Part shown: positions 1 through 23,393 of the stretch, one piece after another
How positions within the stretch are numbered: the stretch's first letter is position 1
Layout of the letters: each line of letters starts with the position of its first letter
Source of the DNA: Terriglobia bacterium
GTDB taxonomy: Bacteria > Acidobacteriota > Terriglobia > 20CM-2-55-15
Assembly: GCA_963664115.2 (NCBI GenBank)
Contig: CAXWPJ010000010.1
Span: 352,001 to 416,000 of the forward strand
Length of the DNA stretch: 64,000 nucleotides
Direction: 5' to 3'
Notes under the pieces: model-generated
The model's database searches: none
Told to the model about the DNA's origin: nothing
The model's input: the letters and a program-made list of their open reading frames with translations, nothing else
Position numbers and translations under genes: made by a program

Positions 1-461
1 GTTTCCTTTGGCTTGACCAGAGTTTGCCTATCCACGACCGAACGGGCCAACTCCTCGCGAATGGCATTCAGACGCAGGCCGCGCTCGTGCAGGATTTCCC
101 CCGCCACACACTTTTCTTCCCGCAGGATGCCGAGCAAGAGATGCTCGGTTCCGATGTGACGGTGATTCAAACGCTCGGCCTCTTCGGCCGCGTACGCCAG
201 TATCCGCTTGCACTCGTTGGACAGGGGCAAATCAATGGACGTCGATACCTTCTCGCGTATCGTCGTCCGTCCTTCAATTTCTTTGCGGATGCTTTCGATG
301 GAAGACTGGTTGCGCAGGAAACGGTTGGTAAGATTCTTGTCCTCCCGAATCAGCCCCAACAACAGGTGTTCGGTTTCTATCGTCGTGCTACCGAACTGGC
401 TGGCTTCATAGCGCGCGAAGAAGATTACGCGACGGGCTCTTTCTGTATATCGTTCGAACAT
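1..461 (-). CDS. clpC: ATP-dependent Clp protease ATP-binding subunit ClpC/ClpA, N-terminal part (runs off window)
   Basis: Minus strand from ATG at 461 reads MFERYTEKARRVIFFARYEASQFGSTTIETEHLLLGLIRE...RHIGTEHLLLGILREE, i.e. two Clp-N repeats. Absent from the ORF track because it has no stop in the window. Confidence 0.9.
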   Translation of the reverse strand, partial: MFERYTERARRVIFFARYEASQFGSTTIETEHLLLGLIREDKNLTNRFLRNQSSIESIRKEIEGRTTIREKVSTSIDLPLSNECKRILAYAAEEAERLNHRHIGTEHLLLGILREEKCVAGEILHERGLRLNAIREELARSVVDRQTLVKPKE

Positions 462-652
462 GGTCTCGTCTTCAAGGTGAACCGAATTCCAGAAGGACTT
501 CCGTTCTCAATTATCCAGTCGTTTCTTCCGGTTGTGCAACTCTATCGATTCTAAACGAAGGCCAAATTCAGAACAAGGCCCCGGGAAGGATAACTCTTCC
601 CCCCACACCAACTCTTCCCAATACTCTCTTCCCAATACTCTTCCCTACGCGA

Positions 653-741
653 GGGGACAGGGCAGTCAGACCCCTTTTTCTGTGGGCTTTTCAGCTTATC
701 TAAAAATTAAGCTGAAAAAGGGGTCAGACGGCCCTGTCCCC
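653..741. repeat. Long intergenic inverted repeat (GGGGTCAGACCCC-type REP-like hairpin)
   Basis: Left arm GGGGACAGGGCAGTCAGACCCCTTTTTC matches the reverse complement of the right arm with 2 mismatches; inner TTTTCAGCTTA/TAAGCTGAAAA stem. Lies just after the lolD stop. Confidence 0.75.
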
Positions 742-746
742 AAGGG

Positions 747-1451
747 TTACACCAACTTTCCCCTATCGATCTGCCAGATCTGGTCACACTGTGCCGCAAT
801 CGTTTCGTTATGTGTCACGATCACTGAGGTCAACCCACGCTCGGCATGGAGTTTGCGTATCACTTCGAACACTTCGTCTCCCGTCTCGGGATCCAGGTTA
901 CCGGTCGGCTCGTCGGCCAGAAGAAGTTCCGCATCTCCGGCCAGGGCACGTGCGATAGCAACTCTCTGCTGCTCCCCTCCGGAAAGCTCCCCGATCTTGT
1001 GTTCCCTCCGTGCTCCGAGACCCATTTGGTCAAGCAATTGGCCCCCGCGTGCCATGGCATCGTCCCGGGTCTCTCCCCTCACGATCAACGGCATCGCCGC
1101 ATTTTCGGTCGCGGTAAATTCGGGCAGAAGGTGATGAAATTGAAAGACAAAGCCCACATGGCGGTTTCGATACTGTGCCAGACGGATTGGATCCAATGAA
1201 AAGATGTCTTCCTCCCCGAACAGGACCTGGCCCGAGGTTGGAGAATCCAGGCCACCCAACAAGTGGAGCAACGTGCTCTTACCTGCACCCGAAGGTCCAA
1301 TTACGGCGATCAGGTCGCCCGAGGCCACACGCAGATTCAGCTCTTCGAAAACGACGATGTCTGAGGCGGGCGTAGGGTATATTTTCGTTAGGTTTACGGC
1401 CTCCAGCACTGCGGCAGAGGACGGAGAGCTATTTTCAGATTGTATCTGCAC
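747..1451 (-). CDS. lolD: Lipoprotein-releasing ABC transporter ATP-binding protein
   Basis: Walker A GPSGAGKS, GFVFQFHHLLPEFTA, LSGGEQQRVAIARAL, LLADEPTGNLD; downstream of a LolC/E permease. Confidence 0.9.
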   Translation of the reverse strand: MQIQSENSSPSSAAVLEAVNLTKIYPTPASDIVVFEELNLRVASGDLIAVIGPSGAGKSTLLHLLGGLDSPTSGQVLFGEEDIFSLDPIRLAQYRNRHVGFVFQFHHLLPEFTATENAAMPLIVRGETRDDAMARGGQLLDQMGLGARREHKIGELSGGEQQRVAIARALAGDAELLLADEPTGNLDPETGDEVFEVIRKLHAERGLTSVIVTHNETIAAQCDQIWQIDRGKLV

Positions 1452-1546
1452 AGCGTAGGATTATGACCCGTGCGACAGTTTGTCTGATCCAAAACGGGCA
1501 CACGGCGTTCTCACTGGGAAAAAATCGACCAGAACGTGCCCAAAGC

Positions 1547-2761
1547 TTACTCATACCGGAGAGCCTCCACGGGCTGGAGCTTCGAGGCCGCTCTGGAAGG
1601 GTACAGGGTGGCGGCGTAGCTGATCGCGACTGCCGCAACGGCCACGATAGCGGAGTCGGCTGCGCTGGTCTGGAAAGGAACGTATGCGATGGAATAAACG
1701 TCCTGGGAGATGCTGACCCACTGGTACCGGTCCGCCATGAAGCTGACGAGATTCCCGATGACGAGGCCCAAACTCGTGCCGACGACACCGATGATCACCC
1801 CCTGGGCGATGAAGACCCGCCGGATGTTGTCAGGGGTCGCACCCATAGCCATGAGCACCGCGATGTCGCGGGTTTTCTCCATAACCATCATGACGAGCGT
1901 CACCACGATGTTCAACGAAGCCACGAACACGATCAGACCGATCGTGATGAACATGACGATCCTCTCCAACTGCAATGCCTCAAAGATCGCCGAATTTTGA
2001 GCTCTCCAATCCGTAAACTCCAGGCCCTCGCCGGCGGCAGCGGCGATTTCGGGACCGAGTACTCCGGATTGATCGATGTCGTCAATCCGGACTTCTATCG
2101 AAGAAGCCATGTCGCCGGCCCCCAACAATCGTTGCGCAGCCTCCATCGGAACGTACACATAGCCGGCGTCGAATTCGTAGAGCCCTGAGCGGAACACGCC
2201 CGAAACTTCGAACGAACGGGATCGCGGCGCGGGACCGGCCGGAGTGAGTATCGTTTCCGCGCTCAAGGCCCGGACACTGTCCCCGACGAAAGACCCCATC
2301 GCCAGTGCCAGCTCTTCGCCGATCAGAATCGAACGGGGCCCAAAATCCTCCGGGCTGCCCTCAATGAGGCTTTCAAACACCTCAGAACGCTTCGCTTCCA
2401 GTTCGGGCACGATTCCCTTCATGTACGCAGGGCGGCTCTGAAAACCATTTGTCAGGAGCACCTGCTGGTAGAGAGCGGGCGCTGCAGCGTTAACACCGGC
2501 GACCGATTCCGCTCTTCGGGAGATCTCGATATAGTTGGGAATGCCCTCCCGGGTCGGCCGCAACAAGGTGATGTGGGCCTGTGTACCGAGGAGCTTTTCT
2601 TCAAGGTCCTGGCGGAAACCCGCGTTGATCGCGAGCGCGATGACCAGAGCAGCGACACCGGCCGTGACGCCGATAACCGAAATGATGGTAATCAGAGACA
2701 CCACGGCCTGCTTACGCTTGGCCTTCAGATACCTGAAAGCAACGATGAACTCGAACCGCAC
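1547..2761 (-). CDS. LolC/E family lipoprotein-releasing ABC transporter permease
   Basis: FIVAFRYLKAKRKQ..VSLITIISVIGV N-terminus, EKTRDIAVLMAMGA, C-terminal ATLYPSRAASKLQPVEALRYE. Start set at GTG 2761 because the upstream extension is repeat sequence. Confidence 0.9.
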   Translation of the reverse strand: MRFEFIVAFRYLKAKRKQAVVSLITIISVIGVTAGVAALVIALAINAGFRQDLEEKLLGTQAHITLLRPTREGIPNYIEISRRAESVAGVNAAAPALYQQVLLTNGFQSRPAYMKGIVPELEAKRSEVFESLIEGSPEDFGPRSILIGEELALAMGSFVGDSVRALSAETILTPAGPAPRSRSFEVSGVFRSGLYEFDAGYVYVPMEAAQRLLGAGDMASSIEVRIDDIDQSGVLGPEIAAAAGEGLEFTDWRAQNSAIFEALQLERIVMFITIGLIVFVASLNIVVTLVMMVMEKTRDIAVLMAMGATPDNIRRVFIAQGVIIGVVGTSLGLVIGNLVSFMADRYQWVSISQDVYSIAYVPFQTSAADSAIVAVAAVAISYAATLYPSRAASKLQPVEALRYE

Positions 2762-2828
2762 GAAGGAAATTATGACACGGAAAGCGCCCGACACCGTATG
2801 GCACAGCAACTTGAGAGGTTTGATTTCT

Positions 2829-3002
2829 TTCACCGCAAAGGCGCAAAGACACAAAGAATAAAAAGAGATAGGCTGTCTGGATTTCGGCGGGATGACCCTA
2901 GTAGGTTCCCAATGACTATGGTGCTAAGCCAACTGAGTGTGAGCAAAGTAGACTCAACGAAACCCGGTCTTGTCTTTTTTTCCTTTGCGCCTTTGCGGTG
3001 GA
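2829..3002. mobile_element. CGCAAAG-arm inverted-repeat element, copy 1 (MITE/REP-like)
   Basis: TTCACCGCAAAGGCGCAAAGACACAAAG ... CTTTGCGCCTTTGCGGTG with internal motif GGTTCCCAATGACTATGGTGCTAAGCCAA. Confidence 0.8.
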
Positions 3003-3070
3003 AAAGTAATCGATGCGATTGTGGCACAATGGAGGTTTGGACTGAGAACGGAAGAAGGAACTGACACTGA

Positions 3071-4879
3071 ATGAATCTTCGTAACATCGCCATCGTCGCA
3101 CACGTCGACCATGGCAAGACCACGCTCGTCGACGCCATGCTCTGGCAGAGTGGAACGTTTAAGAAGCACCAGACTGTGCAGGACCGCGTCATGGACTCGA
3201 TGGATCTCGAGCGAGAAAAAGGCATCACGATCATGGCCAAGAACACGGCCATTCGATATGGCGACATCAAGATCAACATCGTCGATACACCCGGACACGC
3301 TGACTTCGGAGGTGAAGTGGAACGCACTCTCGGGATGGTCGACGGCATCATGTTGCTTGTTGATGCAGCGGAGGGACCGCTGCCACAGACACGCTTCGTG
3401 CTGTCGAAAGCCCTGGATCTGAAGCTGCCCGCCATCGTCGTCGTCAACAAGGTCGACCGCAAGGATGCACGCGCCGCAGAAGTACTCAACGAGATCTACG
3501 ATCTGTTCATCGATCTCGACGCGACAGAAGGTCAAATCGATTTCCCTGTGGTCTACGCGGTGGCGCGGGAAGGCCAGTGCACTCGCACTCTCGGAGAACC
3601 GCTCACAGACCTGCGACCACTCTTCGACACGATCGTCGATCACATCCCCGCCCCAACTGGCGAGCCGGACCGGTCGTTTCAGATGTTGGTCACGACTGTA
3701 CAGCCGGACGACTACAGGGGACCGCTGGCGATCGGACGCATCGTTACCGGAACAATCCGTAATCGTCAAAAGGTCACCCTCTGCCACCGGGACAGTTCAC
3801 AGACTCAGGCTGAAGTGACCGAGCTGTTTGTTTACGAGGGCCTGGAACGCGTATCGACCGAGGAGGCCGGCCCGGGCGAAATCGTAGCGGTGGCCGGCAT
3901 GACGGGAATCGGGCTTGGCGAAAGCCTCGCAGACGGCGAAGATCCTCACCCCCTTGCACCGTTACACGTGGATGAACCGACGATGTCGATGGAATTCTTG
4001 ATCAACAACTCTCCCTTCAGCGGCAAGGACGGGGCCTACGTGACGTCGCGCCATCTGCGGGAACGCCTGATGAAGGAAGCGAGCAACAATCTTTCGATGC
4101 GGGTGGAAACCACCGATTCGCCAGACCGCTTTGAAGTATTCGGCCGGGGCGAGCTGCAACTGGCAATCCTGATCGAACAGATGCGGCGCGGGGGCTACGA
4201 GTTCTCGGTCGGAATGCCCCGCGTCATCACCCGGGATATCGAGGGACGCAAACACGAACCTTTCGAGCTGGCCCTGGTCGACACCCCGGAAGAGTATATG
4301 GGTGTCATCATGCAGAAGCTCGGGACGCGAAAAGGCGTGATGGGAAAGATGGTCAACCACGGCTCGGGTCGCGTGCGGCTGGAGTTCGACGTCCCCAGCC
4401 GGGGACTGATAGGATACCGGACCGAGTTTCTCACCGACACCAAAGGCACCGGCATCCTCACACATATCTTCAACGAGTTCCGACCGTGGGCGGGCGAGAT
4501 CAAACATCGGGCGACCGGAGCCCTGGTCGCTGACCGGGAGGGCCCCGTCACCGGCTTCGCGGTGATTAATCTGCAGGAGCGCGGTGAGCTCTTCGTCGCA
4601 CCTACCGATAAAGTCTACCGGGGCATGCTGGTAGGAGAAAACAGCCGGGACGCCGACCTCGACGTCAACATCACCAAGGAAAAGAAGCTGACGAACATGC
4701 GGGCGTCGGTCTCAGACACCTACGAGAAAATCGTTCCGCCCCGCCTGATGTCGCTGGAACAGTCCATCGAATTCATCCGCGACGACGAGCTGATCGAGGT
4801 CACTCCAAAACACCTCAGGCTCCGCAAACGCCACCTCGACCCCAACGACAGAAAGCAACACGCCGCACGGAATAATTAG
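3071..4879 (+). CDS. typA: Translational GTPase TypA/BipA
   Basis: [61 protein letters not shown]; 602 aa. Confidence 0.97.
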
Positions 4880-4880
4880 C
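4818..4880 (+). repeat. 63-bp direct repeat, copy 1 (3' end of typA)
   Basis: GGCTCCGCAAACGCCACCTCGACCCCAACGACAGAAAGCA...ATTAGC recurs at 5666-5728; first 40 nt identical, 5 mismatches in total by eye. Confidence 0.9.
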
Positions 4881-4899
4881 GCTCATTAAAAGACTAAGA

Positions 4900-4989
4900 T
4901 TTTTAACACGGAGGTCACGAAGTTGAGATGTCTTCAGAAAAAGAAACTTCGTGTTCCTTCGTTACTCTTCGTGGTCTTCGTGTTAAAAA
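4900..4989. repeat. ACGAAG-arm inverted-repeat hairpin element
   Basis: TTTTTAACACGGAGGTCACGAAG ... CTTCGTGGTCTTCGTGTTAAAAA with tandem CTTCGT units in the right arm. Confidence 0.7.
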
Positions 4990-5058
4990 CTCCCCTCTTA
5001 CTCCGGCCGGAGATGCGGGATGCTCTCCGTGCGTGAGTATATGTGATATATATACATA

Positions 5059-5364
5059 ATGGATCCGGGGGAACTGCTTACCAACTGCACCGGATTTGAT
5101 TGGGATGAAGGCAATCTGCTCAAAAACTGGGAGAAACATGCAGTCTCAGGCGCCGAATGCGAACAAATTTTCTTCAATCGGCCACTTGTCGCAGAACCAG
5201 TCGCCAAACATTCGGGTGGAGAAATACGGTACTACGTCTTGGGCCAGACAGATTCTGGTCGGCCGCTGTTCTTGGTCTTCACGGTTCGTGGCCAATTGAT
5301 TCGAGTGATTTCGGCTCGCGAGATGAGCCGCAAGGAGCGACGGGAGTACGAGAAACATGGCTAA
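5059..5364 (+). CDS. brnT: BrnT family toxin
   Basis: FDWDEGN..KNWEKHAVS, LFLVFTVRGQLIRVISAREMSRKERREY; overlaps the antitoxin start. Confidence 0.9.
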   Translation: MDPGELLTNCTGFDWDEGNLLKNWEKHAVSGAECEQIFFNRPLVAEPVAKHSGGEIRYYVLGQTDSGRPLFLVFTVRGQLIRVISAREMSRKERREYEKHG

Positions 5365-5656
5365 CAAACTGAAGAAGGTTCCTAGACAGCGGAATGAGGA
5401 TCAGGAGCGGAGCTTTTGGGCAAAGGCGGATTCGACAGGCTATATCGATTGGAGTCGAGCGCGCCCCCTGCTCTTGCCGGGCCTCAAACCGACGCTTAAA
5501 ACCATTTCAATTCGCTTACCTGAACACATGATTGCTGAATTGAAACTTCTCGCAAACAAGCGGGATGTCCCGTATCAAAGCCTGCTCAAGCTCTACCTGG
5601 CGGAACGGATCGACAAGGAGATGAAGCACCTCGGCCCATCGAAACTGAAAGCCTAG
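5357..5656 (+). CDS. brnA: BrnA/CopG-type ribbon-helix-helix antitoxin
   Basis: ERSFW...DSTGYIDWS, TISIRLPEHMIAELKLLANKRDVPYQSLLKLYL; coupled to brnT. Confidence 0.85.
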   Translation: MANKLKKVPRQRNEDQERSFWAKADSTGYIDWSRARPLLLPGLKPTLKTISIRLPEHMIAELKLLANKRDVPYQSLLKLYLAERIDKEMKHLGPSKLKA

Positions 5657-5665
5657 CCAGTCCCT

Positions 5666-5728
5666 GGCTCCGCAAACGCCACCTCGACCCCAACGACAGA
5701 AAGCAGCACGCTGCACGAAACGATTAGC
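5666..5728 (+). repeat. 63-bp direct repeat, copy 2 (duplicated typA 3' end)
   Basis: Diverged copy of 4818-4880 located 9 bp after the brnA stop. Confidence 0.9.
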
Positions 5729-5763
5729 CTGATTGGAACAATTGAGCTAGTCCAAATGTTTTT

Positions 5764-5945
5764 TTCACCGCAAAGGCGCAAAGACGCAAAGGAAGATAAA
5801 GACAGGATAGGTTGCCAACGCCGAATTCGACCGGCACCAGTTGGGTTGGCAACACAGTTGTTGGAAACCCACAAAACTGCATGCTGCTCGAATTTAAACA
5901 GCCTATGCCTTCTTTTTCTTTGCGCCTTTGCGCCTTCGCGGTGAA
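5764..5945. mobile_element. CGCAAAG-arm inverted-repeat element, copy 2
   Basis: TTCACCGCAAAGGCGCAAAGACGCAAAGG ... CTTTGCGCCTTTGCGCCTTCGCGGTGAA; core GGGTTGGCAACACAGTTGTTGGAAACCC; ends 3 bp from the lysS stop. Confidence 0.85.
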
Positions 5946-5948
5946 TTC

Positions 5949-7424
5949 CTACTCCGGGCGGAGATGGGGAAAGAGTATGACGTCGCGGATGGACTTGGAA
6001 TCGGTCAACAACATCGTCAAGCGGTCCAGGCCGATGCCTTCCCCGGCGGTGGGGGGCATGCCGTATTCGAGAGCATGGACATAGTCTGCGTCCATGGAGT
6101 GCGCTTCGTCGTCGCCCCGCGCCTGCGCTTCCAACTGGGCTTCAAAACGCTTCTTCTGGTCGATCGGGTCGTTCAATTCGGAATAGGCGTTGGCCAACTC
6201 CATCCCGGCGATATACAGCTCAAATCGCTCGACCAGGCTCGGATCGTCCTTCTTGGCCTTCGAAAGAGGCGACATCTCGATGGGGTAGTCGTAGACAAAC
6301 GTGGGTTGGATCAGGTGCTTTTCAGCTACGGCATCGAAAAGCTCGCCGATCAGGCTTCCCAGCCCGAGTTGCGGATTGTAGTTGGCACTCACCTTGTCCA
6401 GCAGAGCCTTCACTCGGTCAAGGTCCGATAACTCCGCTTCTTCGATCGCATCGCCCGGAAAATACTTAACGATGGCTTCCTTGACTGTGATCCGTGTCCA
6501 TTGATTGAAATCCACTCCAACGCCGTCGTAGGTGATCGTCCGGGAACCACAAACTTTGTCCACGACCCCGGTGATCATTTCCTCAGTGAGATCCATCAGG
6601 TCGGTGTAGTTGCTGTAGGCCTGGTAGAACTCCAGCATCGTGTATTCGGGATTGTGCTTGAATGATATGCCCTCGTTTCTGAAGTTGCGGTTCAGATCAT
6701 AGACCCGCGTCAAGCCCCCGACGATGAGACGTTTCAGGTACAGTTCCGGTGCGATCCGCAGGTACAGGGGCATGTCGAGGGCATTGTGGTGAGTCTGGAA
6801 CGGCCGGGCCAGCGCACCACCGGCGATAGGCTGCAGAATCGGCGTTTCCACTTCAAGATATCCGCGATCATCGAGAAAGCGCCGCAACTCGCGGATGATC
6901 ACGCTTCTCTTGACAAAAACATCCCGCACATCCTGATTGACGATCAAATCGACATAGCGGCGGCGATAGCGGATTTCGATGTCGGTGAGACCGTGCCATT
7001 TTTCAGGCAGAGACCGCAGGCTCTTGGCCAAAAAGGTCAACCCGGACGCCAGGACAGTCAGCTCGCCTGTGCGCGTGCGAAACATCACGCCTTCGGCTCC
7101 GATGAAGTCGCCGATATCGAGCAAACGATAGAGTTCGAAATCAAGTTCGGAGAGCTTGTCCTTCCGGGCGTAGACCTGGATCTGTGAGCCGCCTTCGGAA
7201 ATCGTCAGAAAACCAGCCTTCCCGAAAGGCCGTGCGGCAACGATCCGACCGGAAACCCTTACCGTCGTCGGTTTGGCTTCGAGCGTCTCCGCCGAGTCCG
7301 GCTCAAACTGCTCAACCGCCGCCGCAATCGTGTGGGTATAGCGGTAGCTCGTAGGATAGGGATCACACCCCAACGCCTCGATCTTCTGGAGCTTCTCTAA
7401 GCGTATTTCTTCAGGTTCGTCCAT
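5949..7424 (-). CDS. lysS: Lysine--tRNA ligase (class II)
   Basis: [59 protein letters not shown]. Confidence 0.97.
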
Positions 7425-7432
7425 AAGATTTT

Positions 7433-7603
7433 TTCACCGCAAAAGCGCAAAGGAAAAGAAAACGTAGCCTGTGAAAGTTCAGGGCAATCAATTCTCATGG
7501 GTTCCCAATAACCGTATCGAAAATCCAACTGTTTCTGGTCGATTTAGATGTAGGCAAGGTGTTCAGTCTTTTCTTCCTTGGCGCCTTTGCGCCTTTGCGG
7601 TTA
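7433..7603. mobile_element. CGCAAAG-arm inverted-repeat element, copy 3
   Basis: TTCACCGCAAAAGCGCAAAGG ... CCTTTGCGCCTTTGCGGTTA; fills the nusB-lysS spacer, and its terminal TTA is the nusB stop. Confidence 0.85.
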
Positions 7604-8020
7604 GCTCTTCCTCTCTTCTTCGATTTCCTTGTAGATACTGTCGAGCAAGCCGTTGATGAACCGGGGGGATCCCAGGGTGCTGAAACGGCGCGCGATTTCA
7701 ATCGCCTCATCGATCACGACCGTCGCCGGTGTATCGGGTTCGTGCAACAGCTCCTGGGTGGCCATGCGCAGCAGGTTACGGTCGAGAGTTTCCATCCGCT
7801 CCAGACGCCAGTTCTTTGCGTGGCGCTCGATCAATGGATCCAGGGCTTCAAGATGTTCGACGGTGCCGTGTACCAGGCGGTCGGCAAAGGTGCGGACATC
7901 GTCTTCTGCTTTGTTCACTTCCCAGAACGTCGCAATCGACGTATCCAGGTTGTCGCGCCGGAGATCCCACTGATACAACATCTGAAGCGCATATTCTCTC
8001 GCGGCCCGTCGACTGCCCAT
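7601..8020 (-). CDS. nusB: Transcription antitermination factor NusB
   Basis: SRRAAREYALQMLYQWD, NWRLERM..LDRNLLR, VVIDEAIEIARRF, FINGLLD; follows ribH. Confidence 0.95.
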   Translation of the reverse strand: MGSRRAAREYALQMLYQWDLRRDNLDTSIATFWEVNKAEDDVRTFADRLVHGTVEHLEALDPLIERHAKNWRLERMETLDRNLLRMATQELLHEPDTPATVVIDEAIEIARRFSTLGSPRFINGLLDSIYKEIEEERKS

Positions 8021-8023
8021 AGA

Positions 8024-8509
8024 TCAGAGACCCCGAAGCGACTGCACCATCTCGATGACAGCAATAGCCGCGTCGTAACCGCGGTTCCCGATCCCACCGC
8101 CGGCCCGCGCCAGGGCTTGTTCGACGTTATCGGTCGTCAGCACTCCGAAACCGATCGGGATGCCCGAATCCAATGAGACACGTTCCAATCCATGGGTCGC
8201 AGCCTGGCTCACGTACTCGAAGTGCGGCGTCTCGCCACGAATAACGCAACCCAGCGCAATGACCCCATCGCAGTTCTTCGCCAATCTCTGCGCGGCCAAG
8301 GGTAACTCGAACGCGCCCGGAACGCGGACGACGTCCACCCCATCACGACGGGTTCCGGTCTTTTCGAGCGCACTGAGCGCTCCTTCAAGGAGACGATCCA
8401 CGATCTCCTGATTGAATCGGCCCGCGACAATCGCGAAGCGATAGCCCTCTGAAGCGAGGTCCTCGATCGGATCCGGTTCTTTTTTACTTCCCTTTGAAGT
8501 TGGGGGCAC
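8024..8509 (-). CDS. ribH: 6,7-dimethyl-8-ribityllumazine synthase
   Basis: RFAIVAGRFN, VPGAFELP, ALGCVIRGETPHFEYV, FGVLTTDNVEQA. Start (GTG 8509) uncertain. Confidence 0.93.
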   Translation of the reverse strand: MPPTSKGSKKEPDPIEDLASEGYRFAIVAGRFNQEIVDRLLEGALSALEKTGTRRDGVDVVRVPGAFELPLAAQRLAKNCDGVIALGCVIRGETPHFEYVSQAATHGLERVSLDSGIPIGFGVLTTDNVEQALARAGGGIGNRGYDAAIAVIEMVQSLRGL

Positions 8510-9263
8510 GTTTCTCCAGGAACGCTTCGGTCCCTTCTCGCACGTCTTCGGTCGCAAAGCACATCCCGAACAGAGTCGCTTCAAGGAACTGCCCTTCGGA
8601 CAAAGTCATTTCCATTCCACGATGGACGGCTTCGAGACAGTACCCGACGGCGAGAGGTGCGTTCGTCATGATTTTCCTCGCCAAGCCTTCCGCTGTCGAG
8701 AGAAGTTCAGACTGTGACACAAGGCGATTGATGAGACCCATTGCCAGTGCCGCTTCCGCAGAAACCGTCTCGCCCGACAACAGTATCTCGAGAGCCCGTC
8801 CTTTCCCGACCAGCCGAGGCAGGCGTTGGGAACCGCCGTATCCGGCAATCAGGCCCAGGCCAACTTCGGGCTGTCCAAAGACTACGTTCTCCGATGCCAC
8901 CCGCAGCGTGCATGCCATCGCCAGCTCACATCCTCCGCCCAGCGCGTATCCGTTGACGGCAGCGATCACCGGTTTGCCGAGTTGCTCAATAAAATTGAAG
9001 ACATCCTGTCCGGCGAGGGCATACTCGCGTCCGTCCGCAGGCGAAAGGGAGGCAAACTCTTTGATGTCCGCACCGGCAACAAAAGCCTTTGTGCCACTGC
9101 CGGTCAAGATCACGACACGCACTTGATCGTCACCCACAGCGGACTCGAAGGCCGTAACCAACTCCGACATCGTCAACTTGTCGAGTGCGTTGTGAACTCT
9201 CTCCCGGTTGACGGTAACGAAAGCGACACCATCTTTTACGTCATAGAGCAGATTTTCGTACAT
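8484..9263 (-). CDS. Enoyl-CoA hydratase / crotonase family protein
   Basis: AFVAGADIKEF, AAVNGYALGGGCELAMAC, FGQPEVGLGLIAGYGGSQRLPRLVG. Confidence 0.92.
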   Translation of the reverse strand: MYENLLYDVKDGVAFVTVNRERVHNALDKLTMSELVTAFESAVGDDQVRVVILTGSGTKAFVAGADIKEFASLSPADGREYALAGQDVFNFIEQLGKPVIAAVNGYALGGGCELAMACTLRVASENVVFGQPEVGLGLIAGYGGSQRLPRLVGKGRALEILLSGETVSAEAALAMGLINRLVSQSELLSTAEGLARKIMTNAPLAVGYCLEAVHRGMEMTLSEGQFLEATLFGMCFATEDVREGTEAFLEKRAPNFKGK

Positions 9264-9289
9264 CAGCGCTTTTCTCTAGCGTCAAAGGA

Positions 9290-9424
9290 TTCACCGCAAA
9301 GACGCAAAGGAAGACAAGAAAGACATGGAATTGGGATATCAGGACAGTCGTTGAGAACCCTGAAGGGTCCAGTTCGCTGCACCTTTCACGGCCTATCCCT
9401 TTTTTCTTTGCGTCTTTGCGGTTA
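9290..9424. mobile_element. CGCAAAG-arm inverted-repeat element, copy 4 (internally shortened)
   Basis: TTCACCGCAAAGACGCAAAGG ... CTTTGCGTCTTTGCGGTTA; retains core TTGGGATATCAGGACAGTCGTTGAGAACCC. Confidence 0.8.
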
Positions 9425-9506
9425 GATCCCGAAGGGGAGATTATCTCATATACATGGACTGCAGGGATTCGTCGGCAGAATCCATTTCAATCTGTGTAAT
9501 CCGCAG

Positions 9507-10478
9507 CTAACGGTAGCGGACGGTGAAGTTGGTGTTGACGTTTTGGCCGGGATAGGTCTGGGACAGCGTGAAGACATCGCCTACGGCGAATGGCTGGCCC
9601 ATCGGTTCCGCGTACACAGTGTAGTTTCCGGGCGTCAATCCCTGGATCGTGAACACTCCGGTCGGATCTGTCACCGCGCTGGCAGCGGCCAGACCGTTGG
9701 GATCGAGCGCCAAAACCATCGCACCAAACACTGCGGCATTCGCCGTCGTGCGCACGGTGCCGCTGATGGACCCCAGCGCTGAGAAGGACGCGTCCGGATA
9801 GATCGTCGACAAACCAATCATGTCGTCGAGCGCTATCGTTCGGGGAAAACTGACACCTGGAAGAATCGTTGGGAACATGGCCGATGACAGTATGTTGGAA
9901 TGATCCAGTCCCAGAAGGTGGCCCACCTCGTGTGTTGCCACAGATTCCAAATCGAATCGGTCCGAAGGGGTCGTGGTGCTTAAGCTGAAGCTGACATCGG
10001 GGTTGAACATGATGTCCGCGTCAATGATTTGCCCGGCAAATTCTACTTCGGTTCCGGTCGTCATATCGGTTCCCGTACTGGTAAAGCTGAAAGCACCGGT
10101 CAGTCCGAGCGCCGTGGAATTGAAGTCGGACGTCGACACGTTCGTCGTGATGAGGTTCACCAGATCCAGGCCAGGCAACACCGAGGGATCCGTGACCTGA
10201 CCTTCGCTGAACGTCAGGTCTGAAGTCGTCACATCCGCCCATTGCTGGAACGAATTTCGAAACACATCGGCCTGTTCCCGGTCTCCGGTAACGTTGGAAC
10301 CCACGGTCGGGTTCATGCGCCAGGTGATCGGCATGAATGAATCGGCCCACTTCACTGCAATCACGTTCCCGTTTATATCCAGATTGGTTTCCGGAATGTA
10401 GGCCAGAAGCGGCACCGTCACGAGCACAAAGGCCGCGGCGACGACAATGCGTTTCCGCTTTGATGGCATCTGATTCAT
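9507..10478 (-). CDS. Secreted matrixin (M10-like) metalloprotease with C-terminal carboxypeptidase-regulatory-like domain
   Basis: Signal peptide; metzincin motif HEVGHLLGLDH plus Met-turn SAMFP; C-terminal GSISGTV...G.FTIQGLTPGNYTVYAEP. Confidence 0.8.
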   Translation of the reverse strand: MNQMPSKRKRIVVAAAFVLVTVPLLAYIPETNLDINGNVIAVKWADSFMPITWRMNPTVGSNVTGDREQADVFRNSFQQWADVTTSDLTFSEGQVTDPSVLPGLDLVNLITTNVSTSDFNSTALGLTGAFSFTSTGTDMTTGTEVEFAGQIIDADIMFNPDVSFSLSTTTPSDRFDLESVATHEVGHLLGLDHSNILSSAMFPTILPGVSFPRTIALDDMIGLSTIYPDASFSALGSISGTVRTTANAAVFGAMVLALDPNGLAAASAVTDPTGVFTIQGLTPGNYTVYAEPMGQPFAVGDVFTLSQTYPGQNVNTNFTVRYR

Positions 10479-11044
10479 CGACCCACTCCCGCGACCAACT
10501 CACGGATCTGGGCTTTGAACTCCTCAAGCCCCACTCTCCGGACAATCGAAGCACCCGTGACGAGCCCGGTTTTGGGGCTCACCAGATCCACGCCGCTGAT
10601 GTTCGCGGTCGCAAAATCCTCTTCGATCACATAACGGCCCTGGTTCAGACCCACGACGTGGAAGGTCCCGTTGCCTGCGTCCTTCAGGAACACGATGACG
10701 CTCGCGCCTTCATTGAATTCCGGCATACCCGGCACAGACAGGACAAGCGCACCGACCTGGCCACCCATCTGGCGTATCTGCAATGTCCGACGTCGCTCTC
10801 CTTTTAGAGGATCATCAACCCGGATCGTCGCATAGGTGAATATCAGTTTCTTTTCGCTGTCCCATTGGCTCGAGACCGACTCCACGACACCCTGGATGAT
10901 GCTGTCAGACTCGCTGACAAGATCTTCGAGATCCATATCGACGACGATGCTGCTCGCGACCGGCCTCGCCCACAGGAGCACTGCCAGTCCGAAGCAGAGC
11001 GTGAGGACGAGCGATTTTTTGTCGAGTTGGTTGCTATGCTTCAT
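10475..11044 (-). CDS. Secreted hypothetical protein
   Basis: Signal peptide; DLEDLVSESDSIIQGVV...GGQVG...GMPEF..G..VIVFL; ATGA overlaps with both neighbours. Confidence 0.7.
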   Translation of the reverse strand: MKHSNQLDKKSLVLTLCFGLAVLLWARPVASSIVVDMDLEDLVSESDSIIQGVVESVSSQWDSEKKLIFTYATIRVDDPLKGERRRTLQIRQMGGQVGALVLSVPGMPEFNEGASVIVFLKDAGNGTFHVVGLNQGRYVIEEDFATANISGVDLVSPKTGLVTGASIVRRVGLEEFKAQIRELVAGVGR

Positions 11045-12525
11045 TTGATGATGATCCCTCCGGAAAGTACGGAAGTGTCCAGGTTGGAGTTCGTGACGGT
11101 CACGGTCCGGGGACCGAGCGACGCGTTGGCGGCAACGTCGATCTGAATGAATATGACGTTGCCCGAATAAGAAACGTTGGACAAGGTGATTCCGGTGCCA
11201 CTGACTGTAACGTTCGACCCATTCGCCTCGCTGATCCCCGTACCCGCCACGACAAGGTCCGTGGTCTCACCCTGTGAGACCTGAGCACTGCTGGATGCAA
11301 ACGAAATGCTTTCGAAACGATTTCCGACACCGATACTCGTAAAGTTGAGACTCCCGGCCGGCACCGGCACGTATATATCCACGCCCGTTGTCGTTTGCCC
11401 TCCCACAACACTGCTTGTGGTTTGGACAAGTTCGGTGGAGGAGCCGAACGACTCCGTGACCTCCAGAATTACGGAGGATGTGGAGGCCCCCGTCACCTGC
11501 ACGACAACCGGACCGCTGATCGCCGTGTCCGGCACCACTACCCTGAGCTCGGTCGGCGTCGCAGTATCGGGAGAGACACTCACGGTCCCCATTGCCGCAT
11601 TGAACACAACAGTGTTACTGGCCGCATTGGAATCAAAACCGCTTCCGTTCACCGTGAGCGTCTGTCCCCGTGAAACACGGGTGGGCGAAAGCGAATCCAG
11701 AGTCAGGGACCCGGACACCACCGAGCCATCCAGATTGAAAGACGGCAAGGCTGTGAAGTTTAGTGCACCGGAAAAACGCAGGGCAACCGCCACGACAGGA
11801 ATGTCGCTCGTAATGCGTAATGTTCCGACGAGTCCTGCTGTACCCTCAAAAAGAGTCGACAACGACAGCAACAATGCATGGGGGGCTGTGGCCGGCAGCA
11901 CCTGAGGGGGAGCCGTACCCAGCGAATTCGCCGACGCATCAAACAGCTCAAAGCTCACACTTGCGCCAGTCGTGGTCGAAGGATTTGCATACGCAATAGC
12001 GGTCGTGAAACCAGAGGTCTCATCCACAAAAATGTCTTGAATCGTCGCCGCCTCCGATCCCGCCATGGATGTTTCGTTGATCAAGGATCCCTGACCGGGA
12101 GTGCCTTCGAACAATGAAATGATGGCGGTCGCAGTGATCTCAGGTGTCGCATTCACAGTCGCCAGGGCCTGAATAAAACTGCCCCCTGAGGTGGAAACGT
12201 ACTTCTGACTCCCTCCAGCGGCAAGCGAGCTTGCGATCACACCTCCCGCACTCACCACGTTACCCGCACTATCTTCAAAGACCGCGCTAAACGGAGCGCC
12301 ATCCTGACCCACGAAGGTAATTGTCACATCCGCGGTTGCTGACGGGGAGGGATTCGCCACAAAGATCGTTGTTGTAAGAAAGAGCGAATCGCTCAGGGCG
12401 CCGTCAACAATCTCGGGGAAAAAGACCGTCTCAGTCTGAGCCGCCCCAACACCTGGCAAGGTGATGACCAAGGCCAGCAGTAACAGGACCTTTCCCAACG
12501 GTCCTCCGAACACTTTATCGCACAT
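11041..12525 (-). CDS. Secreted Ser/Thr-rich protein with IPT/TIG Ig-like domains
   Basis: Signal peptide; LDSLSPTRVSRGQTLTVNGSGF...NTVVFN...ELRVVVPDTAISGPVVV (IPT/TIG). Confidence 0.75.
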   Translation of the reverse strand: MCDKVFGGPLGKVLLLLALVITLPGVGAAQTETVFFPEIVDGALSDSLFLTTTIFVANPSPSATADVTITFVGQDGAPFSAVFEDSAGNVVSAGGVIASSLAAGGSQKYVSTSGGSFIQALATVNATPEITATAIISLFEGTPGQGSLINETSMAGSEAATIQDIFVDETSGFTTAIAYANPSTTTGASVSFELFDASANSLGTAPPQVLPATAPHALLLSLSTLFEGTAGLVGTLRITSDIPVVAVALRFSGALNFTALPSFNLDGSVVSGSLTLDSLSPTRVSRGQTLTVNGSGFDSNAASNTVVFNAAMGTVSVSPDTATPTELRVVVPDTAISGPVVVQVTGASTSSVILEVTESFGSSTELVQTTSSVVGGQTTTGVDIYVPVPAGSLNFTSIGVGNRFESISFASSSAQVSQGETTDLVVAGTGISEANGSNVTVSGTGITLSNVSYSGNVIFIQIDVAANASLGPRTVTVTNSNLDTSVLSGGIIIK

Positions 12526-13273: not shown

Positions 13274-13286
13274 AAGAATAAGAGTT

Positions 13287-13471
13287 TTCACCGCAAAGGC
13301 GCAAAGACGCAAAGGAAGAAAAGATAAAGACGGATAGGCTGCCTACATCCCGCTTAACTAGAGCTATTTGGGTTAGCAAGAAAGTTGTTGAGAACCCATC
13401 GAGCTTCGGTCAGCTGAAATCTCGACAGACCATCCCATCTTCCTTGTGCGCCTTTGCGTCTTTGCGGTAAA
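13287..13471. mobile_element. CGCAAAG-arm inverted-repeat element, copy 5
   Basis: TTCACCGCAAAGGCGCAAAGACGCAAAGG ... CCTTTGCGTCTTTGCGGTAAA; core GGGTTAGCAAGAAAGTTGTTGAGAACCC; between convergent genes. Confidence 0.85.
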
Positions 13472-13474
13472 AAA

Positions 13475-17195: not shown

Positions 17196-17379
17196 TTCAC
17201 CGCAAAGGCGCAAAGACGCAAAGGAAGATGGGATGGTCTGTGTAGATTTCGTCTGATCGCAACTCTATGGGTTCTCAACGACGTTCTTGCTAACCCGAAT
17301 AACTCCAGTCGAGCGGGATGAAGGCAGGCTATCCCGTCCTGCTTTTTCTTCCTTTGCATCTTTGCGCCTTTGCGGTTAA
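17196..17379. mobile_element. CGCAAAG-arm inverted-repeat element, copy 6
   Basis: Same arms; the interior is closely similar to the reverse complement of the copy 5 interior. Confidence 0.85.
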
Positions 17380-18142: not shown

Positions 18143-18321
18143 TTCACCGCAAAGGCGCAAAGGAAGATGGGTTGGTCTGTGTGAATTGCGTCGGACTGAA
18201 CCTCTATGGGTTCTCAACAGCATTCTTGCTAACCCAGACAGCTCAAGTCGCGCAGAACGTAGGCAGTCTTTCCGTCTTTCTTTCATTTTCTTCCTTTGCG
18301 TCTTTGCGCCTTCGCGGTGAA
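18143..18321. mobile_element. CGCAAAG-arm inverted-repeat element, copy 7
   Basis: Same arms and interior orientation as copy 6; the flanks are also homologous. Confidence 0.85.
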
Positions 18322-19285: not shown

Positions 19286-19392
19286 TAACCGCAGAGACGC
19301 AAAGGCGCAAAGGAAGAGAGAAGAGTCAGTTTGTCTTTTCTGAAAATCATTTTTCTTTGTCTTCCTTTGCGCCTTTGCGTCTTTGCGGTTCA
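19286..19392. mobile_element. CGCAAAG-arm inverted-repeat element, copy 8 (short, no core)
   Basis: TAACCGCAGAGACGCAAAGGCGCAAAGGAAGA ... TCTTCCTTTGCGCCTTTGCGTCTTTGCGGTT. Confidence 0.8.
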
Positions 19393-22317: not shown

Positions 22318-22906
22318 AGACTGGGCCGAAGCGCGTCATGTCGTGATCGCGCTGACCCTGGGTCTTATGGTTCCCGCCCTGCTCGTCCGCTTCGCTCCGG
22401 GCCGTTCGGACGACTTCGCAAAAGGTCTGCTGGCCGGCTTGCTCGCAGGTGCCGGTTTCGGCTACGCCCAGTTCTGTTTCCTGAACGAACGCCAGCGAGG
22501 CACACTGGAGTTTCTGCTCAGCCTTCCCATTGAGCCCCGACAGCTTGTCCTCGCCAAATTCGTCTCCCTGTACTCAATGGTCCTTTTCACCGTAAATGTC
22601 CCTGGCCTGCTCGTCCCAGACCTTCGGCTCGTCTACATCACCAACGCCGCAGCCCTTTCACTAGCAACCGTCTTCATGGCCACAACGGTCATCTCAGACA
22701 AGCCCTGGGCCTCGCAAATACCCATCTGGTTCCTTCTCGTCTTCATCCTCCCCATCCAACGCCTCCTCGAACGCTACTACCCCAACGGACTGCAGCTCTT
22801 CGAAACCCTCACCGCCAACCCCATTCTGTTAGCGACATTCGCCTTGCTCGTCAGCCCGCTCGTTGTCGCTGTATCCGTTTCGATTTTTCACCGCAAAGGC
22901 GCAAAG
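22271..22906 (+). CDS. ABC-2 type permease (putative immunity); no own stop, reads in frame into the GxxExxY gene
   Basis: About 6 TM segments; ERQRGTLEFLLSLPIEPRQLVLAKF motif. Confidence 0.8.
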
Positions 22907-23393
22907 GTGAATGAGAACCCTTTGTCACGGAAGGTCATTGGGGCCGTAATTGAAGTGCACCGCATCTTAGGCCCGGGCCTACTAGAGTCGATTTATCAAG
23001 ACTGCCTCGACATTGAGTTCCGGCTTCGAAGAATCAGGTTCGAAAGGGAAAAGAGAATCCCTCTCATCTACAAAGACCAAGATCTGAGAGAGCGCCTTCG
23101 TATCGACTTTCTCGTCGCAGATGAAGTCGTAATCGAAACCAAATCCGTTCACTCGTTACTGCCCGTACATGACGCGCAAGTGCTCACGTACCTAAAGTTG
23201 ACCGGCTGCAAATTAGGTCTGCTGATCAACTTCAACGTCCCAGTAGCAAGAGACGGAATCAAACGCATCGTAAACCGCCTCTAGCCCCCCCCCTTTTCGT
23301 TTGCATCGACGCCCCCTTTGTTTCCCATTCGGATTCCCCCTCCCCCATATAGAATCGTCTTTCTTCTTTGCGTCTTCGCGCCTTTGCGGTGAA
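22887..23393 (+). mobile_element. CGCAAAG-arm element, copy 9, enclosing a GxxExxY nuclease gene
   Basis: Left arm TTCACCGCAAAGGCGCAAAGG abuts the GTG start; right arm CTTTGCGTCTTCGCGCCTTTGCGGTGAA. Confidence 0.8.
22907..23284 (+). CDS. GxxExxY protein (PD-(D/E)XK nuclease fold)
   Basis: VIGAVIEVHRILGPGLLESIYQDCL, RIDFLVADEVVIETKSV, HDAQVLTYLKLTGCKLGLLINFNV, GIKRIVN. Confidence 0.92.
   Translation: MNENPLSRKVIGAVIEVHRILGPGLLESIYQDCLDIEFRLRRIRFEREKRIPLIYKDQDLRERLRIDFLVADEVVIETKSVHSLLPVHDAQVLTYLKLTGCKLGLLINFNVPVARDGIKRIVNRL

Follow-up and report, generated by a model that had tools for sequence, protein, structure and literature searches.

A toxin–antitoxin pair between two copies of a convergent typA–lysS junction in a Terriglobia bacterium

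How does a toxin–antitoxin (TA) pair arrive between two housekeeping genes when no mobility gene accompanies it and the ends of both neighbours are found twice? The question is raised by a locus of a Terriglobia bacterium in which a predicted brnT–brnA-type pair (brnTA) lies between the convergent genes typA and lysS. We analysed this locus within a stretch of 64,000 nucleotides (the window; positions 352,001 to 416,000 of contig CAXWPJ010000010.1, assembly GCA_963664115.2) and compared the source genome, G000, with four congeners, G001 to G004, i.e., five genomes for the genus; coordinates are those of the window unless a genome or locus is named. The duplicated unit is the entire convergent typA–lysS junction, comprising typA end, hairpin spacer, and lysS end. 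Congeners show the junction in empty and in filled form, and neither host gene is disrupted. The explanation that we favour, with a probability of roughly 55%, is a single entry by recombinase-free insertion with long target duplication, followed by homologous recombination that swapped the spare gene ends with working alleles.

The host genes typA (bipA; 3071–4879, plus strand; TIGR01394, 904.7 bits against a cut-off of 757.3) and lysS (5949–7424, minus strand; TIGR00499, 639.9 bits against 427.6) converge on the locus. Repeat comparison divides the DNA around the cargo into a left unit (4818–5018, 201 bp) and a right unit (5666–5969, 304 bp). The left unit starts with T1, the working typA 3' end (4818–4880, plus strand), continues with a spacer that holds the ACGAAG-type heptamer hairpin H1 (4900–4989; z −3.6), and ends with L1, a spare version of the terminal 23 bp of lysS (4996–5018, minus strand) that reads PHLRPE-stop. 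The right unit starts with T2, a spare typA end that is in frame and retains its stop (5666–5728, plus strand), continues with a spacer that holds the CGCAAAG-type heptamer hairpin H2 (5764–5945; z −8.5), and ends with L2, the working lysS 3' end (5947–5969, minus strand). The two typA ends, 63 nt long and spaced by 848, are alike at 58 of 63 positions (92%), identical over their first 40 bp, and unique within the G000 genome; the lysS ends share 20 of 23 positions. For comparison, the same test found a flanking direct repeat of at least 24 bp in 2 of 300 random windows of G000. Between the units are 647 bp of unique cargo with two open reading frames (ORFs) only, fitted so tightly that the brnA stop is 9 bp from T2 and the leader directly adjoins L1. 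Repeat comparison and profile matches thus confirm the layout proposed in an initial annotation of this DNA, namely a typA-end repeat and two hairpins with brnT–brnA between them. That annotation took the repeat to be the last 63 bp of typA, which is real, but the unit also takes in the spacer and the last 23 bp of lysS.

The arrangement recurs in other data. Positions 4828–5695 are found with 0 differences in 4 of 4 public runs from four studies, on a single contig in 3 runs and on three contigs that overlap in the remaining run; one of the four may be the source sample itself. One public contig spans the second copy (5608–5790), and the independent genome G002 has the same layout. In addition, a seawater run contains a relative with brnA–T2, H1–L1–brnT, and H1–lysS joins. 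In the H1–lysS contig (run X16), an H1-type hairpin is joined straight to lysS and 951 bp are skipped; either an empty allele or the right-hand copy at a filled locus of the relative could explain this, and the contig backs the repeat unit, not excision.

Comparison with the congeners, which is between species of the genus and not between strains of one species, gives the two states of the site. In G004 and G001, typA and lysS are approximately 40 and 260 bp apart, with a single copy of each end and no heptamer hairpin. In G003, 23 kb of other cargo lies between the two genes, again with no second typA end. G002 carries the same cassette (91% DNA identity; BrnT 95% and antitoxin 86% identical) with an orthologous H1 in the same place, a spare lysS end, a spare typA end, and the same right joint. 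The initial annotation had proposed looking for an empty site with one copy in relatives, and had regarded two copies in relatives lacking brnTA as contrary evidence; G004 and G001 lack brnTA and carry a single copy. Across 35 genomes of the family, the typA end was matched in 24, and a second typA end was found in two, G000 and G002. Since typA fourfold sites place G002 closest to G000 among the congeners (94/291 differences, versus 126 to 135 of about 285 for the others), a single gain in the common ancestor of G000 and G002 is the simplest history. A pattern scan of metagenomes for the typA end yielded 3 loci, none with a second copy or brnTA in the DNA examined. The junction itself is genus-specific among the loci examined: outside the genus, lysS is mostly adjoined by a lolC/E-type gene (L225–L247), and within the genus typA is placed between lysS and that gene, on the opposite strand. 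The idea that brnTA was transferred faster than its flanks was not supported (fourfold differences 19/85 versus 156/505, P 0.12).

The right unit has probably changed since the gain. In G002, an insertion sequence (IS) lies directly 3' of T2, and a second copy of that IS adjoins the true lysS end 500 kb away; an apparent lysS remnant right after T2 was rejected, as the sequence is the IS end. The end of an H1-type arm survives before the lysS stop of G002, so the right unit of G002 once had an H1-type hairpin. The H2 type at this place is specific to G000 among the genomes compared, and H2 is likely a replacement of an H1-type hairpin.

The substitutions between repeat copies carry further information. 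T1 and T2 of G000 differ at 5 sites, 4 of them synonymous and all 5 within the last 23 bp (clustering P 0.005), while L1 and L2 differ at 3 sites, all synonymous, a stop-to-stop change included. In G002, 5 of the 8 differences between T1 and T2 are synonymous. Pooled over these three related comparisons, the synonymous share is 12 of 16, versus 39% to 42% expected with one dead copy (P 0.004–0.007); for G000 alone it is 7 of 8 (P about 0.01). Stop codons are kept in all spare ends. The pattern suggests working alleles as the source of the spare ends. This would follow if recombination with homologous DNA brought in or refreshed the unit. We regard this as moderate evidence, which does not separate a RecA-type from an integrase-type crossover.

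What was inserted has the layout of a BrnT/BrnA type II TA system, i.e., a toxin-first bicistron in which PF04365 is followed by PF12441 in one operon. An AT-rich cassette leader (5019–5058, plus strand), similar to leaders 5' of BrnT relatives, is likely its promoter/operator; a scan for sigma-70 promoters and terminators found no site, and Rfam gave no meaningful match over 2700–7700 (a single match, E 0.49). The intact brnT (5059–5364, plus strand) encodes a predicted ribonuclease toxin of 101 residues (PF04365, 78.9 bits against a cut-off of 34.5), for which the nearest solved chain is 7vd7_A (E 8e-7). It overlaps by 8 nt with the gene for a 99-residue brnA-type antitoxin of the CopG/ribbon-helix-helix type (5357–5656, plus strand; PF12441, 94.3 bits). 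Unlike typical BrnA, this antitoxin falls below the cut-off of the NCBIfam BrnA model NF047399 (46.4 bits versus 60), and toxin activity and its neutralisation are predictions. Both frames are intact in two species (G000 and G002).

Several features hint at an integron origin of the cargo. Its GC content at third codon positions (0.56 and 0.63) is lower than that of the host genes (0.74 and 0.72), and BrnT relatives are spread over many phyla. Several of these relatives are integron cassettes in which the antitoxin stop overlaps the attC R'' box, with attC-type repeats at L097, L098, L100, L131, and others. The consensus of this box is RYYYAAC. At the brnTA locus, an R''-like box lies over the brnA stop (5651–5657, plus strand), perfect in G002 and with one mismatch in G000; such a box at the stop occurs in 1.2% to 2.0% of 3050 G000 ORFs. 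It stands alone and is followed by typA sequence; a complete attC (R'', L'', L', R') is not present after brnA. In G002 only, a GTT-like word lies where a cassette start would be expected, approximately 59 bp 5' of brnT; such a word is present at 22 of 72 loci. G017, from the sister genus, has a brnA piece of 84% identity with an attC-like hairpin directly behind it, and this hairpin matches the attC family of the G000 integron. That integron (G000:C9:710500-715760) consists of an integrase (IntI; TIGR02249, 440 bits against a cut-off of 265) and, downstream of its 3' end, a cassette array with at least four attC-like sites. Judged by these sequence features, the brnTA module is likely a former integron cassette.

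The footprint belongs to a known class. Insertion with long target duplication has been described for restriction-modification genes, with direct repeats above 30 bp, inserts below 20 kb, no mobility gene, and many repeats that extend across a start or stop codon (Furuta, Abe and Kobayashi 2010, PMC2853133). A cycle of invasion, amplification, release, and reinfection was proposed there, with no evidence reported for the last steps (PMC2853133). At the brnTA locus, the direct repeat exceeds 30 bp (63-bp typA part, spacer, and 23-bp lysS part), the site is empty and single-copy in related genomes (G004 and G001), and the insert is well below 20 kb and free of other mobile elements. The cargo is PF04365 plus PF12441 instead of restriction and modification genes, and the locus is therefore a variant of this kind, outside the restriction-modification set. 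It shares with that set a small addictive module, slightly diverged repeat copies, and a spanned stop codon that leaves the host genes intact. It differs in its type II TA pair, which takes the place of a nuclease–methylase (the word "toxin" is absent from the main text of PMC2853133); in a repeat that takes in the ends of both convergent genes (201/304 bp) and is compared between species; and in a synonymous excess that points to release and reinsertion, the step for which no evidence is reported in PMC2853133. The footprint class is known, but its mechanism is made testable here by the two-ended coding repeat, the hint of integron ancestry, and recurrence in the BrnT family. Nobusato et al. 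reportedly dealt with such insertions of restriction-modification genes in 2000. The minimal mobile elements of Neisseria likewise place variable cargo between two conserved genes and exchange it by homologous recombination; as a difference, they are not known to need duplicated gene ends. Our literature search, which covered few subscription journals and no supplements, found no paper on TA modules inserted with long target duplication.

On the favoured explanation, the attC of a former integron cassette would have been lost from immediately beyond the R'' box, and the cassette would have been fused to typA sequence, approximately 70 bp from the stop, through an illegitimate joint of the microhomology type. 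The resulting junction-plus-cassette DNA, either a circle or a linear piece anchored by lysS-side homology, could then have recombined into an empty chromosome, a step that would leave two allelic copies of the junction. Later exchange via the 40- to 63-bp repeats and the flanking genes may have refreshed the spare ends and swapped H1 for H2 on the right, and an addictive TA pair would counter-select its own loss by pop-out between the repeats.

Repeat-framed BrnT modules also occur elsewhere. A survey of BrnT relatives retained 80 of 377 loci, of which 18 were too short, leaving 62 testable. Tight flanking direct repeats of at least 24 bp were present at 13 of these 62, compared to 3 of 239 shifted control windows. 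Seven of the 13 were set aside (four attC-like, array L168, dispersed repeat L160, and a paralogous signal-peptide match, L108). The remaining six (L111, L113, L120, L135, L148, and L171), all in other lineages, are framed by a single pair of 24- to 139-bp direct repeats (6/62 versus 3/239 controls, Fisher P 0.003). At L111, L120, L148, and L171, the repeat is a piece of a neighbouring gene (a tadA-like deaminase twice, a DHH phosphoesterase, and a phospholipase D-family gene). As a separate observation, a tadA-like gene has a brnTA relative at its 5' end in three planctomycete-labelled genomes (L111, L120, and L117), and the 43- to 56-bp duplications at L111 and L120 end at the same base.

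Two other gene-end duplications of G000 were examined. At G000:C9:878000-882850 (L066:2000-6850), the last 52 bp of a sigma-54 regulator recur twice among TA-type genes (DUF433/DUF5615, HTH-Fic, an HTH_37 antitoxin, and an addiction-module pair), the copies sharing a 5' extension. At the corresponding site, the array of G004 is a different one and includes three further copies (39, 73, and 126 bp), and G002 has one copy; the working end of the G004 regulator resembles the second G000 copy. Such variable repeat lengths are as expected for homology-based, not site-specific, joints. The second case is the overlapping mtaB/acpS 3' ends, which are duplicated around 2.1 kb in G000 (G000:C9:76870-79070, L067) with no integrase there. 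In G001 and G007 the mtaB/acpS site is empty, while 2.9 kb occupy it in G002 and 15 kb in G004 (L175:1295-16400); the G004 element encodes an Arm-DNA-bind_3 plus Phage_integrase pair and satellite-like genes. These ends are an integration hotspot. A genome-wide scan of G000 found a downstream partial 3' copy at 11 of 3052 ORFs, versus 1 or 2 in three internal controls, mostly from one multicopy kinase family, and a scan at 24 nt found 20 genes versus 13 to 18 in controls, which is little excess. The scans therefore point to a handful of gene-end duplication sites and not to a genome-wide rule. The kinase family is worth a remark of its own: 35- to 60-bp start and end pieces of these Ser/Thr-kinase-like genes turn up dispersed between cargo genes of unrelated kinds (G000:C2:319-340 kb and 744-777 kb; C9:910-948 kb; C10:222-251 kb), and one gene is followed by as many as ten copies. 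Dozens of matches to the end piece occur in relatives, and the pieces may act as recombination landing pads.

Several points weigh against the favoured explanation. The class name describes a footprint and not a demonstrated mechanism, and no circle, pop-out, or crossover product was seen in public contigs, which end inside the 40-bp perfect repeat and are blind to these. The synonymous test draws on small counts from related comparisons, the G002 T1/T2 pair holds 3 non-synonymous changes, and divergence between the T2 copies of the two species (9/62) is not significantly lower than that of the spacer (30/118; Fisher P 0.13). The upstream attC likeness in G002 has P 0.01 against one chosen site and 0.04 to 0.07 against five sites. 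The six framed loci elsewhere are described here from their filled sites. The mtaB/acpS duplication is free of an integrase in G000, yet the site is occupied by a tyrosine-integrase element in G004. Finally, on a metagenome contig, a 24-residue integrase-like fragment with no Pfam match lies directly behind the typA stop (L065:1381-1452, minus strand); it ends in an RFHDL-stop-HT motif, like a remnant of tyrosine-integrase box II.

The last two points lead to the main rival, a decayed integrase element. Elements flanked by att sites that have lost their integration genes are known as cis-mobilizable elements (CIMEs; PMC5704250). The brnTA locus would then be the remnant of an element whose tyrosine integrase targeted the typA 3' end (core of approximately 65 bp) or lysS (approximately 22 bp), with extended homology across the junction and the integrase deleted later. 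Flanking attL and attR sites typically provide replacement gene ends with synonymous differences, which is what the spare ends look like. The tandem copies with a common 5' extension at the sigma-54 site, the 27 PF00589 matches in the G000 genome, and the fragment in L065 also speak for such a history. The strongest point is the mtaB/acpS site, which has exactly this history and indicates that decayed integrative elements do give this look in the genus. In this respect the locus resembles CIMEs and tandem accretion at gene 3' ends, in which integrase-less cargo lies between attL/attR-like gene-end copies (PMC5704250); it is unlike them in that no cognate integrase or arm sequence was found for the typA/lysS site. 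The nearest PF00589 match on the contig is 154 kb away, and PF01797 matches lie approximately 133 kb away. No integrase was detected in the DNA examined downstream of typA in 12 relatives nor, at 27 loci of relatives, at a distance of up to 1.5 kb from the lysS end, apart from one weak spurious match inside an IS; sampling of the genus, at five genomes, is thin. There is also no room for arm sites between the cargo and the repeats, and the ends of both genes are duplicated. Viral contigs gave 0 matches to the typA end and 1 chance match to the lysS end, accompanied by neither a lysS nor an integrase match, so that neither end was found there as an attP. We consider a decayed element rather unlikely. 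Pavlovic is said to have worked on CIMEs and tandem accretion at gene 3' ends in 2004.

These searches also bear on the initial annotation, which had noted the lack of a nearby integrase or transposase and had pictured cassette gain in the manner of attL/attR. The first statement holds for PF00589; for transposases, none was evident among the ORFs of window positions 1–12000, which were inspected with no formal DDE transposase scan. The insert, having no transposase ORF, no terminal inverted repeats, and a duplication far above 10 bp, does not answer to a classical transposon or IS. Gain with host duplication is borne out by the empty sites, but attL/attR in the strict sense is not, as no relative examined has an integrase at the site.

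A second alternative starts from the integron: IntI may have put the cassette at a secondary (attG) site, with the junction duplication arising later and restoring typA. An IntI and an attC array are present in G000, an R''-like box marks the right joint, and attG insertion by IntI is documented (10.1101/2022.09.11.507474). Canonical IntI insertion does not fit, however, because it would leave the whole attC behind the gene and because opening at R'' needs top-strand recombination, which is at background level (10.1101/2022.09.11.507474). Similarity to integron cassettes, to single attC sites lacking integron-integrases (SALINs), and to attG insertions extends to relatives that are often cassettes, the stop on an R''-like box, and the GTT word before brnT in G002. 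It ends at the missing complete attC and the long host duplication, which is not reported for attG insertion, the word "duplication" being absent from the text of 10.1101/2022.09.11.507474. The upstream attC likeness in G002 has a P of 0.04 to 0.07. We think that this route is improbable.

About as improbable is an insertion driven by the hairpins, in which a GxxExxY nuclease would cut the junction hairpin and repair would import the cassette and swap hairpin types. A hairpin does occupy the same position in both repeat units with a different type in each, two G000 GxxExxY genes lie between CGCAAAG arms, and breaks have been suggested as a trigger of long target duplication (Furuta 2010, PMC2853133). 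Against this, a pattern search of G000 found 56 paired dispersed heptamer elements (19 of the ACGAAG type and 37 of the CGCAAAG type), of which H1 and H2 are the only ones with a gene-end duplication found next to them; three more have local repeats that were left unexamined. The elements simply prefer convergent gaps (22/56, versus 22% expected, P 0.003, with crude ORF calls), the nuclease activity of GxxExxY is putative, and the sigma-54 and mtaB/acpS duplications in G000 have no such hairpin. The link between cassette and hairpins made in the initial annotation is thus not supported, the more so as the right unit of G002 retains an H1-type arm and neither hairpin is present at the empty sites of G004 and G001. 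H1 and H2 are best read as passengers, ordinary genome-wide repeats, with H1 inside the duplicated junction. They resemble dispersed hairpins of the repetitive extragenic palindromic (REP)/REPIN kind and, on present evidence, are incidental to the cassette.

The hairpin family has features of its own. Further CGCAAAG hairpins lie at 2829–3003, 7430–7601, 9293–9422, 13285–13473, 17199–17376, 18143–18321, and 19287–19390, and 17 of the 37 paired CGCAAAG copies are on this contig, several with related loop sequences. A GxxExxY (PF13366) gene enclosed by CGCAAAG arms, a candidate full form of the H2 hairpins, is found at 22890–23390 (G000:C10:374.9-375.4 kb) and at G000:C9:8.4-9.0 kb. The two copies sit in a near-identical duplicated segment. 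H1 and H2 are gene-less members of such heptamer-armed GxxExxY elements.

A single ancient event, either a tandem duplication of the junction or an unequal exchange, that trapped brnTA between the copies and was followed by mere decay would account for one gain common to G000 and G002 and for a spacer divergence (30/118) near that of the species. It is very unlikely in view of the synonymous excess, the stops kept in all spare ends, the 40-bp identical tract, and the presence of H2 in place of H1. An assembly artefact, which the initial annotation had raised as a risk and which has nothing in its favour beyond the presence of repeats, can be dismissed as far as contigs can tell, given diverged copies, a shared layout in G002, and identical public contigs in four runs from as many studies.

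A broader idea may be put forward tentatively: that TA cassettes escaped from integrons persist as 850-bp recombinase-free mobile units that carry their own host landing pad and cycle between filled and empty chromosomes by homologous recombination. Divergence of both spare ends at synonymous sites only would then be the footprint of release and reinfection that has only been hypothesised for restriction-modification genes, and the BrnT family would behave in this way at many unrelated sites across phyla. For the question of how chromosomal TA pairs arrive without a mobility gene, this locus is a compact and testable case: a unit of 850 to 950 bp that is known in both its empty and its filled state, with two coding repeats in which past recombination is recorded by substitutions. 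Should it prove to be a decayed integrative element, the locus is ordinary. If cycling by homologous recombination is true, many "orphan" TA and defence modules would be mobile and would be missed by scans based on integrases and transposases.

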